Shown one piece after another: positions 4,645-56,688 of a stretch of DNA of 64,000 bases. The stretch lies in the NCBI RefSeq assembly GCF_048263515.1, contig NZ_JBLXEC010000018.1:20420-84419 (forward strand). Direction: 5' to 3'. The position numbers and the translations under genes are program-made. The notes beneath the pieces are model-generated. The model saw only the letters and a program-made list of their open reading frames with translations, did no database searches and had not been told where the DNA came from. Numbering within the stretch: position 1 is the first letter of the stretch; every line of letters begins with the position of its first letter. The DNA is from Marinovum sp. (lineage in GTDB: Bacteria; Pseudomonadota; Alphaproteobacteria; Rhodobacterales; Rhodobacteraceae).

Positions 4645-5163
4645 GTGACTGACATGGTGTCGCGGGTCACGCGAACAGGCGCTATTGGCGCAATAATTCT
4701 GAGTATCTGGATGGGGATGGCCACCGCGCAGGAGACGCGCGGTCCGGTGACGAACCTGCCCTTGCCGCGGTTCGTCTCGCTCAAGGCGAGCGAGGGCAAC
4801 GTGCGCCGCGGGCCGTCGCTGTCGCATCGCATCGACTGGGTGTTCAAGCGGCGCGACATGCCGCTCGAGGTGACGGCGGAATACGGCCACTGGCGCCGGG
4901 TGCGCGACCGCGAGGGCGCCGGCGGCTGGGTGCATTACGCGCTGCTCTCGGGCTCGCGCACGGTGATCGTCGACGGCGATCTGCTGGCGTTGCACGTGCG
5001 CCCCGACGGGCGCACCCCGGTCAAGGCGCGGCTCGAGCGCGGGGTGATCGCGCGGCTGGGCGATTGCGACCTGGAATGGTGCGAGGTAAGCTCCGGCGGC
5101 TACAAGGGCTGGGCCGAGAAGCGCGCGCTCTGGGGCGTGGCGCCCGATGAAATCCGGGAGTGA
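4645..5163 (+). CDS. Double bacterial SH3-domain secreted protein
   Basis: Signal peptide; LPRFVSLK..NVRRGPS..WRRVRD..GWV and second WCEV..GW repeat. Confidence 0.85.
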   Translation: MTDMVSRVTRTGAIGAIILSIWMGMATAQETRGPVTNLPLPRFVSLKASEGNVRRGPSLSHRIDWVFKRRDMPLEVTAEYGHWRRVRDREGAGGWVHYALLSGSRTVIVDGDLLALHVRPDGRTPVKARLERGVIARLGDCDLEWCEVSSGGYKGWAEKRALWGVAPDEIRE

Positions 5164-5181
5164 CTTTGGGGTGAAGCCCTT

Positions 5182-5570
5182 GGCGCGGAACAAGGCTGAA
5201 GGCCGCCGCGCCATCGCCGGTCCGCCCCCACGGCACGGCGATTGGTTGACGTGCGCGCACCGCTCTTTCAAAGCGCGCCAGTGGCCGGGATAAACCGAAC
5301 AGACCTCAGGTTGGATCGCCGCACCGCGGCCCGACGATGACACAGCCTGCACGGTGGGTCTGACAGACGGGGCGCGGAATCAAGGCCGAAGGCCGCCGCG
5401 CCATCGCCGGGCCGCCCCCCGGCACGGCGATTGGTTGGCCTGAGCGCATCGCTCTTTCAAAGCGCGCCAGTGGCCGGGATAAATCACACAGACCTCAGGT
5501 TGGATCGCCGTGCCGCGGCCCGACAATGACACGGCTTGTGCGGTGGGTCTGACGGGGCGAGGCGCGGGAT
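5182..5570. repeat. Tandem ~189-bp repeat (2 full copies plus start of a third), each folding as a long imperfect hairpin
   Basis: Units start at 5182, 5371 and 5561; shared blocks GGCCGCCGCGCCATCGCCGG, CGCTCTTTCAAAGCGCGCCAGTGGCCGGGATAAA and CAGACCTCAGGTTGGATCGCCG; 21-bp arms 5205-5225/5326-5346 and 5395-5415/5515-5535. Confidence 0.95.
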
Positions 5571-5640
5571 TAAAGCCGCAGACCGACGCGGCATCGACGC
5601 ACCGCCCCCCGTCAATGACGCCGTGAGACCAGACCTCAGT

Positions 5641-6348
5641 TCACCCCTTGAACGCCGCCTCCAGCGCAATCTCCACCATGTCGCCGAAACTTTTCTCCCG
5701 CTGCTCGGACGGCAGCGCCTCGCCGGTCAGCAGGTGGTCCGACACCGTCAGCACCGCCAAGGCCCGCACCTTGTGCCGCAACGCGAGGATATAGAGCTCG
5801 GCCGCCTCCATCTCGACACCGAGAATGCCGTGGCGGGTCATCTGCTCGTTGAGGTCGGGGCGCTCGTCGTAGAACACGTCGGACGAATAGATCCCGCCCA
5901 CATGGGTCGGCGTTCCCCGCGCCTCGGCCGCTTCGGCCGCCGCCCGCAACAGGCCATAGTCCGCACAAGGCGCAAAGTTCAGCTCGCGCAGGATCCCACG
6001 CGACGGCGTCGACAAGGTGGTCGAGGTCATCGCGATGATGATGTCGCGGACCTTGACGGCTTCCTGCATGGCCCCGCACGACCCGATGCGGATCAGCGTC
6101 TTGGCGCCATAGTCGCGGATCAGCTCGTTGGCATAGATCGACAGCGAGGCCATCCCCATGCCGGAGCCCTGGATGGTGACGCGCTGGCCCTTCCAGGTGC
6201 CGGTATAGCCCAGCATGCCGCGCACCTCGTTGATGCAGACCGCATCCTCGAGAAAGGTCTCGGCCGCCCAGCGCGCCCGGTAGGGATCGCCCGGCATCAG
6301 CACGGTTTCAGCGATGTCGCCGGGCTTGGCCCCGATGTGGATGGTCAT
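5641..6348 (-). CDS. deoD: Purine-nucleoside phosphorylase
   Basis: [35 protein letters not shown]. Confidence 0.95.
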
Positions 6349-21338: not shown

Positions 21339-21383
21339 ACGTTTTGCCGTTGTCAAAGCCTTGGCCCATCGCATAAAGTCGCC

Positions 21384-21545
21384 GCGACTCGACGGGAGAA
21401 CCGGCCATGCCGGTGCCGAAGGAGCAACCGCCCCGGAAACTCTCAGGCCCCGAGGACCGTCGAAGTCGCAAAAATCTGGAGAGATCCCGGCCTTGTCCGG
21501 GGCGCCGAAGGGATAACGATCTCAGGCAGAAGGACAGATGGGGCA
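21384..21545 (+). promoter_or_regulatory. Tandem glycine riboswitch
   Basis: Two aptamers with GGAGA...GCCGAAGG...CTC(A)GG signatures; P1 GCGACTCGACGG/CCGTCGAAGTCGC; upstream of gcvT. Confidence 0.93.
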
Positions 21546-23150: not shown

Positions 23151-23233
23151 GCCCTTTCCGCCGGGGGCTGCGGGTCTTGCCTGCCAGCCCCCGGTGGAAG
23201 ATTGCCTGGCCAGTTGACGCAGGAGCTGCGCGC

Positions 23234-26083
<2,850 letters not shown>

Positions 26084-26184: not shown

Positions 26185-26211
26185 CATAAAGCTTGCAATA
26201 GCCCATACGGT

Positions 26212-26375
26212 GCCGGGCCAGCGGCTGCCCGCGGGGTGCCGCGGCCCCCGCAGTTCGGCAGCGCTTTATCCCGGCCAAATCCGCAGAAGTTCAGGTCGAC
26301 GCGCCCAGCCCAGCCATAGCGGCAGCCCGATGGGGCGGGCAGCCGCTGGCCCGGCGGGCTTCGCCCTTGTTCCGG
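26212..26375 (-). repeat. Diverged inverted copy of the 5.2-kb hairpin element
   Basis: Reverse complement shares CGGAACAAGG..GAAG.CCGCCG.GCCA.CG and TGGCCGGGATAAA; perfect 21-bp arms 26212-26232/26335-26355. Confidence 0.8.
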
Positions 26376-26400
26376 GCCGGGACGATATTCGAAGGGGGGC

Positions 26401-26423
26401 GGTGGGGTGGAACCCCACCCTAC
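26401..26423 (-). repeat. Isolated REP of the RAYT family
   Basis: Reverse complement GTAG-GGTGGGGT-TCC-ACCCCACC. Confidence 0.85.
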
Positions 26424-36748: not shown

Positions 36749-37132
36749 ATGACAGAGACCCAATCGGCGCCGGACGGAGAGCTGACCCTGCGCACGCTGG
36801 CAATGCCGGCCGACACCAACGTCAACGGCGACATCTTCGGCGGCTGGGTGCTGAGCCAGATGGACATGGCCGCCGGCATCGTCGCCGGCGAAAAGGCGCA
36901 GGGCCGGGTGGCCACCATCGCCGTCGACGCGATGAAGTTCATCCGCCCGGTCAAGGTGGGCGACGTGCTCTGCGTCTACTGCCACATCGCGCGGGTGGGC
37001 CGGACCTCGATGGCGATCGAGGTCGAAGCCTGGGTCCGCCGCGAGCGCATGGGCATGCGCGAGAAGGTGACCGAGGCGATCTTTACCTTCGTGGCGATCG
37101 ACGGCGACGGGAGACCGCGCGAGGTCCCGTAG
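36749..37132 (+). CDS. Acyl-CoA thioesterase (YciA-like hotdog fold)
   Basis: MPADTNVNGDIFGGWVLSQMD. Confidence 0.92.
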   Translation: MTETQSAPDGELTLRTLAMPADTNVNGDIFGGWVLSQMDMAAGIVAGEKAQGRVATIAVDAMKFIRPVKVGDVLCVYCHIARVGRTSMAIEVEAWVRRERMGMREKVTEAIFTFVAIDGDGRPREVP

Positions 37133-37185
37133 GGTGGGTTTCCAACCCACCTTTTCGGGCGCGGTGGGTTGAAAACCCACCCCGC
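37129..37185. repeat. Inverted REP pair (REPIN-like) upstream of RAYT
   Basis: GTAGGGTGGGTTTCCAACCCACC (37129-37151) and reverse GGTGGGTTGAAAACCCACCCCGC (37163-37185). Confidence 0.9.
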
Positions 37186-37225: not shown

Positions 37226-37837
37226 ATGCCGAACTACATTCGCCCGAAGGCCAGAGGGGCCACCATCTTCTTCACCGTCGCCCTCGCACAGCGCGGCGCG
37301 ACGCTTCTGACCGACGAGATCGAGCTGCTGCGCGATGCCGTCAGGGTCACCCGCGCGCGCCGGCCCTTTGTGATCGAGGCCTGCGTGGTGCTGCCGGACC
37401 ACCTGCACATGCTCTGGACCCTGCCATCTGACGATAGCAATTATTCCGACCGCTGGGGCGCGATCAAGGCGCGGTTCTCCAAGAGGGTGCGGCTGAAGCG
37501 GGGGGATGCGGTGGGTTGCAAACCCACCCTACGAGAGGCGGCGTCGTCCGGTTCTGCCCGCTCTGACGTAGAGCGACTGAGGGCGCGCCGCTCGGCCAGT
37601 AAGGTGAAGAAGCAGGACGCCGGCATCTGGCAGCGGCGGTTCTGGGAGCATCACATCCGCGACCGCACCGACTTGGAAAACCACATCAGGTGTTGCTGGG
37701 GCAATCCGGTAAAACACGGGCTGGTCGAGAGGCCGGTGGATTGGCGGTATTCCTCGATCCATCGCGATGTGCGGCTGGGGCGGGTGGAGCCGGAGTGGCG
37801 CTGCGGCGATCTGCGCGACATGTTCGGAGAGCCGTAG
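37226..37837 (+). mobile_element. REP-associated tyrosine transposase (RAYT/TnpA-REP); catalytic Tyr apparently replaced by Cys
   Basis: FFTV, HUH motif PDHLH, WQRRFWEHHIRD, NPVKHG, DWRYSS; flanked by REPs. Confidence 0.92.
37510..37532 (-). repeat. REP embedded in-frame within the RAYT CDS
   Basis: Reverse complement GTAG-GGTGGGTT-TGC-AACCCACC; encodes VGCKPTL. Confidence 0.9.
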
Positions 37838-38005
37838 GGTGGGTCTGTGACCCACCGCAGCGGGGCATTAGGCACGGGGCAAGCCCGCGAGATAACCCCG
37901 TAGGGTGGGTCTGTGACCCACCATGCCGCGGAGCTTCCGCCAAGGCGGTGGGTTGAAAACCCACCCTACGGGCCGCATCGGGTGCGCCGAGACGGCGCAC
38001 CCTGT
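37834..38005. repeat. REP cluster downstream of RAYT
   Basis: GTAGGGTGGGTCTGTGACCCACC at 37834-37856 and 37900-37922; reverse REP 37947-37969; variant hairpin GGGTGCGCCG-AGA-CGGCGCACCC 37980-38002. Confidence 0.9.
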
Positions 38006-39776: not shown

Positions 39777-39848
39777 GGTGGGTTACAAACCCACCCTACG
39801 GTGAAGCGCACGACGGACAGGACGGGTAGGGTGGGTTTGCAACCCACC
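39777..39848. repeat. Divergent REP pair between ettA and MOSC gene
   Basis: Reverse REP 39777-39799 and forward GTAGGGTGGGTTTGCAACCCACC 39826-39848. Confidence 0.9.
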
Positions 39849-56642: not shown

Positions 56643-56657
56643 GCCGGGCCAACCGCG

Positions 56658-56678
56658 GGGTGGGCAAACTGCCCACCC
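56658..56678. repeat. REP-like palindrome between convergent genes
   Basis: GGGTGGGCA-AAC-TGCCCACCC, same GGTG...CACC frame as the RAYT REPs. Confidence 0.55.
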
Positions 56679-56688
56679 TTCGCGATCC

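Follow-up and report, generated by a model that had tools for sequence, protein, structure and literature searches.

What kind of element fills the gap between two convergent genes of Marinovum sp. with tandem hairpin-forming units, which of its strands is the structured one and how it is propagated are the questions raised by a locus in the window, the 64,000-nucleotide stretch of contig NZ_JBLXEC010000018.1 that was analysed here. A preliminary description had proposed a structured element of the minus strand, possibly non-autonomous and mobilised by an HUH enzyme such as the REP-associated tyrosine transposase (RAYT) encoded in the same window. The comparisons presented below favour, with moderate confidence, a REPIN/ERIC-like non-autonomous palindromic interspersed repeat that is here locally duplicated in tandem.

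The Array between the SH3_4 and DeoD Genes

The only strong array detected in the window by Tandem Repeats Finder (score 634) spans 5182-5611 and consists of 2.3 copies of a 189-bp period with 86% matches. A repeat search of the window recovered 139-nt copies spaced 189 nt apart with 89% identity, together with the first 57 nt of the unit as a three-member repeat family. The array occupies a 477-bp gap between two convergent genes that flank the element without being part of it, which are the gene of a bacterial SH3_4 domain protein (4645-5163, plus strand) and the PNP_UDP_1 gene for the purine-nucleoside phosphorylase DeoD (5641-6348/6408, minus strand, with its stop at 5641), whose product has 235 aa in relatives and is 98-99% identical to Marinovum algicola proteins. 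The preliminary description of highly similar ~189-bp tandem units between convergent genes is thereby upheld. Three units were distinguished, all on the minus strand: the long-form unit 1 (5183-5346; nhmmer E 1e-34, also found by TRF), the long-form unit 2 (5372-5535; nhmmer E 5e-36), which shows 89-90% identity to unit 1, and the degenerate short-form unit 3 (5562-5625; nhmmer E 1e-4), through which the array extends to about 5625. Unit 1 spans from the 5' strand of its apical module, GCGCGG (5183-5188), to the 3' arm end GACACAGC, and its better-pairing strand is the window minus strand. The apical module of unit 2 lies at 5372-5401 on the minus strand, matching the module of unit 1 at 5183-5211, and in the plus reading it contains the stem P3 (GCGCGG/CCGCGC) around the junction AAUCAA, the hairpin P4 (GGCC-GAA-GGCC) and a single G. 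In unit 3 the apical module is decayed and is followed by a simple hairpin, CGCGGCATCGACG / CGTCAATGACGCCGTG, the ~85-nt interior being absent. The linkers between units 1 and 2 (5347-5371) and between units 2 and 3 (5536-5561) each include the sequence CGGTGGGTCTGAC, at 5352-5364 and 5541-5553, respectively.

Direct reading of the sequence reproduced the pairing previously given for both copies, with 17 Watson-Crick pairs and 4 C-A mismatches in the arms of copy 2 (5395-5415 / 5515-5535) and 16 Watson-Crick pairs, 4 C-A mismatches and 1 T-C in those of copy 1 (5206-5226 / 5326-5346). The perfect 12-bp inner stem ascribed to copy 2 is also present, formed by CGGCACGGCGAT (5420-5431) with ATCGCCGTGCCG (5504-5515), and most family relatives carry two G-U pairs at this position. 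The C-A mismatches of the outer arms are private to this lineage (ATGGCGCGGC changed to ATGACACGGC or ATGACACAGC), with 4-5 mismatches in the outer 20-nt arms of the window copies as against 0-2 in most family members. Folded as RNA, the minus strand of unit 2 reached -91.1 kcal/mol (z -3.39, 0 of 200 shuffles equally good) and the plus strand -78.5 kcal/mol (z -1.21, 28 of 200 shuffles equally good), and the predicted structure of the window unit exceeds chance; with DNA parameters, the two strands were about equal (-46.9 vs -45.9 kcal/mol).

A further full-length family copy was observed at 26206-26380 on the plus strand (nhmmer E 2e-22; z -2.88), in the orientation opposite to the array and motif-forward on the minus strand, where it lies between the convergent gcvP and inositol-monophosphatase genes. 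Its apical stem, GGGC-GAA-GCCC, and its closing stem, GGCCCGG/CCGGGCC, are both compensatory variants. The glycine-cleavage genes of this region, with gcvP at 23177-26083, are preceded by a glycine riboswitch aptamer (RF00504, 52.6 bits) at 21383-21469.

Anatomy and Covariation of the Family

The alignment of 82 canonical copies, about 172 nt in length, exhibits a constant order of segments in the window-plus reading, starting with GCSCGG, AAUCAA, a 4-5-bp hairpin with a 3-nt loop, a G, CCGSGC and arm a (AUCGCCGGGCCG), continuing with a C-rich bulge, arm a' (CGGNNCGGCGAU), UUGG and about 85 nt of variable sequence with AUAAAG, and closing with (GG)AUCGCCRNNCCG, CGGNCCGRCGAU and GCSCGGC-UU. Two structural parts are recognised, namely the apical module, in which the stem GCSCGG/CCGSGC encloses AAUCAA and the 4-5-bp hairpin with its mostly G-N-A loop, and a long interrupted stem of 26 bp (GCCGSGC-AUCGCCGGGCCG, C-rich bulge, CGGNNCGGCGAU). 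In the long form this stem closes around the ~85-nt variable interior with its almost invariant AUAAAG, for which no consensus structure was found on the 82-copy alignment, and in the short form a 4-7-nt loop replaces the interior and everything between a' and the last GCSCGGC is missing, as in loci L017, L023, L028 and window unit 3. Extra small hairpins are inserted at one fixed site of arm a in L011, L015, L025, L037, L039, L056, L076 and L117, and the orthologous unit of a related strain also has one of them. A tiny palindromic insert, TCATGCC-NNN-GGCATG-YCTTCG-RCATGA, was observed at a fixed point of arm a in L015 (2590-2625), L056, L076, L111 and the orthologue of the related strain, and it may represent an expansion stem or a separate repeat family. 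An outer inverted repeat, TGGCCTGGAGCGGACGTTG / CAACATCCGCTCCAGGCCA, was also seen about 30 nt outside the core in L014, L027, L084, L099 and L108, which are Rhodobacter and Roseovarius MAGs, so that a longer palindrome of ~235 nt surrounds the element in some lineages.

The stems covary well above the shuffled background among the 82 copies, in line with the covariation check proposed at the outset, since 95.8% of stem cells pair, as compared with a shuffled value of 83.9% and with none of 500 shuffles reaching the observed level. Compensatory changes affect 20 pairs (13.2 in shuffles), 304 cells are changed on both sides (76.6 in shuffles), the covariation score is 0.305 (0.098 in shuffles), and slid controls gave 35-45% pairing. 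The RNAalifold consensus of the minus orientation contains 34 pairs, 20 of them compensatory, and reaches -61.2 kcal/mol; for the plus orientation the values are 23 pairs and -33.3 kcal/mol. Strong covariation is displayed by the long stem as well as by the apical hairpin module. The invariance of the apical sequence in alignments A1 and A2 is largely due to the search pattern, which imposed that sequence; in the copies reached by nhmmer alone, the stem variants GGGC/GCCC, GGGGC/GCCCC, GGTGC/GCACC (twice) and GGCAC/GTGCC were found, with a loop that is usually, not always, G-N-A, and judged from these sequences the apical stem really covaries.

The internal CCGSGC is complementary both to the 5' GCSCGG, with which it closes the apical module, and to the 3' GCSCGGC, with which it closes the long stem, and the three segments vary in concert, as at least two variants, GCCCGG and GCACGG, show. 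The two mutually exclusive helices could represent alternative conformations, or alternatively an internal guide could match the ends of the element, as it does in IS200/IS605. This three-way covariation recalls the recognition of cleavage and target sites through base pairing by IS200/IS605 ends or by bridge and seek RNAs, and by this analogy the element might act, by way of an internal segment resembling a guide, as the RNA or single-stranded DNA partner of a recombinase or reverse transcriptase yet to be recognised, which we consider quite improbable. Were it the case, the element would constitute a new self-propagating structured nucleic acid with programmable end recognition.

Asymmetry between the Two Strands

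The stem cells comprise 2520 Watson-Crick pairs, and their wobble pairs are distributed unevenly, with 117 G-U pairs on the minus orientation and 16 on the plus orientation, 52 sequences leaning toward minus and 9 toward plus. The minus orientation deduced from the window copies is accordingly backed across the family, and the element is confirmed as structured, strand-asymmetric and non-coding. Six frequent wobble states, each present in 7-24 sequences, all fall on the minus orientation and may trace to few ancestral events, and the rare states exhibit a weak asymmetry (26 vs 16). Minimum free energies of individual sequences favour neither strand with RNA parameters (minus better in 36 of 82) and slightly favour minus with DNA parameters (48 of 82, p 0.001). 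Folding energy was therefore rejected as a strand selector, as it holds for window unit 2 and fails family-wide. A G-N-A loop closed by C-G is a hallmark of very stable DNA mini-hairpins, and in this family such a loop with C-G closure sits on the plus orientation, so that the strand signals conflict.

The orientation of the copies is also related to base composition, as the motif-forward orientation has a positive GC skew in 48 of 74 loci of 8 kb (p 0.014) and the motif-forward strand is the G-rich one in 33 of the 46 strongly skewed loci, so that the better-pairing strand is more often the C-rich one. A replication-linked mutation bias was considered as the origin of the wobble asymmetry and judged unlikely by reasoning, since the orientation bias would predict the opposite sign.

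Distribution and Host Range

One genome per species was scanned with the 21-nt degenerate motif CAAGGCCGMAGGCCGCCGSGC, and at least 113 loci were recovered in about 30 named Rhodobacterales genera, on chromosomes as well as plasmids. All but four of the matches listed belong to Rhodobacterales, the four being chance matches without a partner arm, and among the matches listed several loci occur per genome, up to 8 in one genome. A BLASTN search with one unit against plasmids matched its 5' third, always in intergenic positions, in 99 records of Pseudosulfitobacter, Salipiger, Sulfitobacter and Roseinatronobacter, and in contigs of the related strain a pile-up of about 50-fold depth covers the conserved part of the unit. 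The further copies whose search had been suggested for one unit are thus abundant in Rhodobacterales by both BLASTN and motif scan; the family is multi-copy per genome and, among the matches listed, confined to this order, and its copies per genome probably number in the dozens. Phage records gave no match to the element motif, and viral contigs gave only one, in L135 (an IMG/VR contig of 4870 nt). The L135 match adjoins an ORF that by eye resembles a large terminase, and the contig may be a gene-transfer-agent or Rhodobacterales prophage region instead of a free phage.

Comparison with Rfam, likewise proposed in the preliminary description, assigned the element to no family: release 15 gave no match to it at the gathering score, the sole match in the window being the glycine riboswitch mentioned above, and a scan of 5000-5800 at E<=10 returned two chance matches only, of 15 bits. 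Literature searches by motif strings and topic keywords found no prior description of the repeat. The family is therefore apparently an undescribed, Rhodobacterales-wide palindromic interspersed repeat of about 165-175 nt. Rhodobacterales, with the roseobacters, Paracoccus and Rhodobacter, include some of the most intensively studied marine and model alphaproteobacteria, and still the repeat is absent from Rfam and from the searchable literature. Cataloguing it would tidy annotation, as many spurious ORFs, breaks in assemblies and long intergenic stretches that seem "empty" are explained by it, and the repeat also provides a means of typing strains and of following recent genome dynamics. Its size and clean definition justify giving the family a name and a covariance model.

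Genomic Context and Transcription

A crude GC3-based gene call around the 82 copies placed 25 between convergent genes, 16 + 15 between co-directional genes (RR and FF, respectively) and 3 between divergent genes, indicating that copies lie after the 3' ends of genes and avoid promoter regions, with an orientation independent of neighbouring transcription. Conservation of the flanks is gone within about 7 nt and consists of a C-rich stretch (CCCC) upstream and TTnGCG downstream, with C at 57-67% at positions -5 to -3 and T at 80% at +1 and 66% at +2. No target-site duplication above the shuffled control was detected when the longest flanking direct repeats were compared, and the only long repeat was the linker of the window tandem. 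The copies lack coding capacity, and no transposase or autonomous master copy was found in the element-bearing loci. The ORFs beside truncated or interrupted copies look like housekeeping genes, with no transposase recognised by eye, and although the arms are inverted repeats, no IS sharing their ends occurs among the pattern matches or beside the interrupted copies. The earlier suggestion of non-autonomy is supported, a dispersed non-autonomous repeat being very probable.

No RNA-seq run with the present genome was found. In RNA-seq contigs from other hosts, copies of the element occur together with their flanking sequence, and these contigs, which are strandless and possibly include DNA, are consistent with co-transcription of the element with its neighbours. 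Such contigs speak for a structured non-coding RNA family, acting as trans sRNAs or as cis 3'-UTR elements, that is transcribed from the minus orientation and selected for RNA function. The strong covariation and the strand-specific G-U pairs also speak for this, as do the optional hairpins at fixed sites, which resemble the expansion segments of functional RNAs, and two invariant single-stranded motifs, UUGAUU and CUUUAU, of which CUUUAU stays mostly unpaired when the interior is folded. The surroundings of the copies point the other way. Neither a sigma-70-like promoter nor an intrinsic terminator was predicted in 5000-5800, no conserved promoter precedes the element in the minus orientation, where flank conservation ends by about 7 nt, and synteny is lacking, the element being missing from the orthologous site of close relatives; hence promoter, terminator and synteny, the features of a stand-alone sRNA gene, were not found in the window and the relatives compared. 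The orientation ignores flanking transcription (FF 15 vs RR 16), which means that in a quarter of the sites the neighbours would transcribe the worse-pairing strand alone. Dozens of copies, in tandem or nested, would moreover be unusual for sRNA genes, and energies computed with RNA parameters do not favour the minus strand family-wide. Selection for an RNA function is on this evidence an unlikely explanation.

The enrichment after 3' ends and between convergent genes might instead reflect a feature of double-stranded DNA, which could be a cruciform, a barrier between gene ends to transcription from both sides, or a BIME-like site with an architectural or protein-binding role. It would agree with the conserved non-stem motif AATCAAGG, a candidate protein site, with the near-equal DNA-parameter folds of unit 2 and with the BIME-like mosaic and tandem clustering. 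A duplex feature does not, however, predict the wobble/C-A strand asymmetry of 117 vs 16, no T-tract follows the hairpin on either strand, and presence or absence of the element among near relatives argues against a required local function, which leaves a duplex-DNA role rather improbable.

The RAYT Gene and Its REPs

The preliminary description connected the units to the RAYT gene of the window (37226-37837; NF047646, E 3e-47), the ORF of which matches Pfam Y1_Tnp at E 0.15 only. Twelve GTAG-type REPs of the pattern GTAGGGTGGG-N7-CCCACC occur in the window, none of them in 5182-5640, and the RAYT gene has GTAG-REPs of its own on both sides (37129-37185 and 37834-37969), forming a REPtron. More REP pairs were observed at 39777-39848 and 56655-56681, one REP match (37510-37532) lies inside the RAYT ORF, and a RAYT-type REP, GTAGGGTGGGGTTCCACCCCACC, is located at 26401-26423, 20 nt from the element copy at 26206-26380.

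A REPIN-like element mobilised by this RAYT would find encouragement in the gene being encoded in the window, in that full REP 20 nt from the copy at 26206-26380, in the absence of target-site duplication, which fits HUH enzymes, and in the short REP match that follows the units. As previously stated, CGGTGGGTCTGAC does follow units 1 and 2 and does match one REP half over 10-13 nt; it has neither the second half nor GTAG, however, and it is confined to the linkers, outside the family consensus. The element arms (GCCGCGC-ATCGCCGGGCCG) have no sequence in common with the REPs, and the family consensus contains no GTAG. A tblastn search with the RAYT detected no homologue in 117 element-bearing loci, the sole match being the window's own gene. 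With the RAYT flanked by unrelated REPs of its own and without a homologue in the element loci compared, mobilisation by it is very improbable; the features that define REPs and RAYTs are absent, and the element is REPIN-like in behaviour only.

Comparison with Known Repeats and Mode of Propagation

REP units are imperfect palindromes of 20-40 nt with a conserved GTAG at their head. The element resembles the REPIN/REP-RAYT systems as a short non-coding extragenic palindrome with tens of copies per genome in within-genome families, and in its two inverted arms that form a long hairpin without target-site duplication. It differs from them in having no GTAG head, no associated RAYT found and arms unlike the RAYT-flanking REPs of this genome, as well as in its far larger size (about 170 nt), its apical module outside the long stem and its ~85-nt variable interior. 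The ERIC/IRU repeats of enterobacteria are imperfect palindromes of >100 nt that lie in transcribed intergenic regions in either orientation and have no known transposase. The present element shares with them a palindrome of >100 nt, an intergenic position, occurrence in either orientation, non-coding sequence and size variants, which arise in both from internal indels at fixed sites with the structure kept by compensatory changes, whereas sequence and host clade are unrelated, so that the class is defined by behaviour and not by homology; the separate conserved hairpin module with its asymmetric internal loop and the frequent tandem arrays further distinguish it. The BIMEs of E. coli, unlike the present element, are assembled from REPs of 35-40 nt, and they serve as binding sites for IHF and gyrase. 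The mosaic palindrome clusters of BIMEs and of the RIMEs of rhizobia, alternating or in tandem after gene ends and with conserved linker motifs, are comparable to those of the element, the AATCAAGGCCGAA of which, as read from the sequence, misses the IHF consensus WATCAANNNNTTR in its second half.

IS200/IS605-type elements carry subterminal hairpins at both ends of one strand, insert 3' of a fixed 4-5-nt target and have their active strand preferentially on the lagging-strand template. The IS200/IS605-derived PATEs and other HUH single-stranded DNA elements are similar to the present one in their strand-specific hairpins and in the absence of target-site duplication and of DDE-type terminal inverted repeats, and its semi-conserved flanks (CCCC upstream, TTnGCG downstream) and GC-skew orientation bias extend this likeness. 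No TnpA or TnpB occurs near the element, in contrast, and it forms one long hairpin with an apical module in place of separate left- and right-end hairpins, with a bias that tends to put its better-pairing strand on the C-rich strand and not on the lagging-strand template. Correia/NEMIS elements and DDE-derived MITEs share with it the size class, co-transcription with neighbours and inverted-arm hairpins, and differ in that the element lacks target-site duplications and that a cognate IS sharing its ends was not found. The element thus belongs with the structured intergenic repeats of bacteria, REPIN-, ERIC- or BIME-like, and its sequence is apparently undescribed.

For the preferred reading as a non-autonomous interspersed repeat, a putative enzyme would copy the element in trans, by way of an intermediate whose complement of the window-plus strand is folded alone. 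It is proposed that, because only the strand of the minus orientation folds alone in this intermediate, G-U or G-T pairs accumulate only there, selection on the folded intermediate letting them persist and purging C-A. A mechanism without target duplication would fit best, of the HUH/Y1 type, of the IS110 type or RNA-mediated. Once inserted, the element would be co-transcribed as 3'-UTR hairpins, with effects on mRNA ends that would be incidental at most. Propagation is a testable question with a concrete core, which is the enzyme that copies a 170-nt hairpin without target duplication and the strand through which it does so, and the three-way covarying segments together with the strand-specific wobbles make it experimentally approachable.

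Turnover of Copies at Individual Loci

The variable interior shows an identity of 0.73 within genomes and 0.49 between genomes, suggesting that the element was amplified within lineages. Tandem arrays were also observed in other genera (L071, L080, L094 and L030), and copies further form head-to-head and nested mosaics. Two P. pseudonitzschiae plasmids, 95% identical in the flanks of their LysR/uraH locus, share the 3' half of the element there, and in one plasmid the 5' half is swapped for a reverse-oriented copy of another subfamily; the comparison of L136 (490-810) with L001 (1390-1700) and L083 (5860-6200) displays the subfamilies head to head, and this replacement of half an element indicates mosaic turnover between plasmids. 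Dispersal may have taken place through recombination or gene conversion, not transposition.

The window locus itself differs among relatives. A related strain carries one long unit and a short unit at this position, indicating that the second long unit of the window is a recent tandem duplication. In M. algicola-type contigs, with DeoD 98-99% identical, the orthologous SH3/DeoD spacer is 47-48 nt in length, unrelated and without the element, and it measures 93 nt and 141 nt, again unrelated in sequence, in two further Marinovum lineages. These spacers of 47-141 nt were considered as possible element remnants and rejected, as their similarity lies within the shuffle range. No filled and empty pair with identical flanks was found, the spacers at the window locus simply differing among the relatives, and on the spacers compared the array is not a conserved feature of the SH3/DeoD locus. 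The SH3/DeoD spacer is in turn a hot spot for unrelated small repeats in Marinovum. In L121 (3209-3349), from an unclassified Marinovum, it holds another GC-rich palindrome, GGGTAGGGAGGGGCTTTGCCCCTC..., and an AT-rich stretch.
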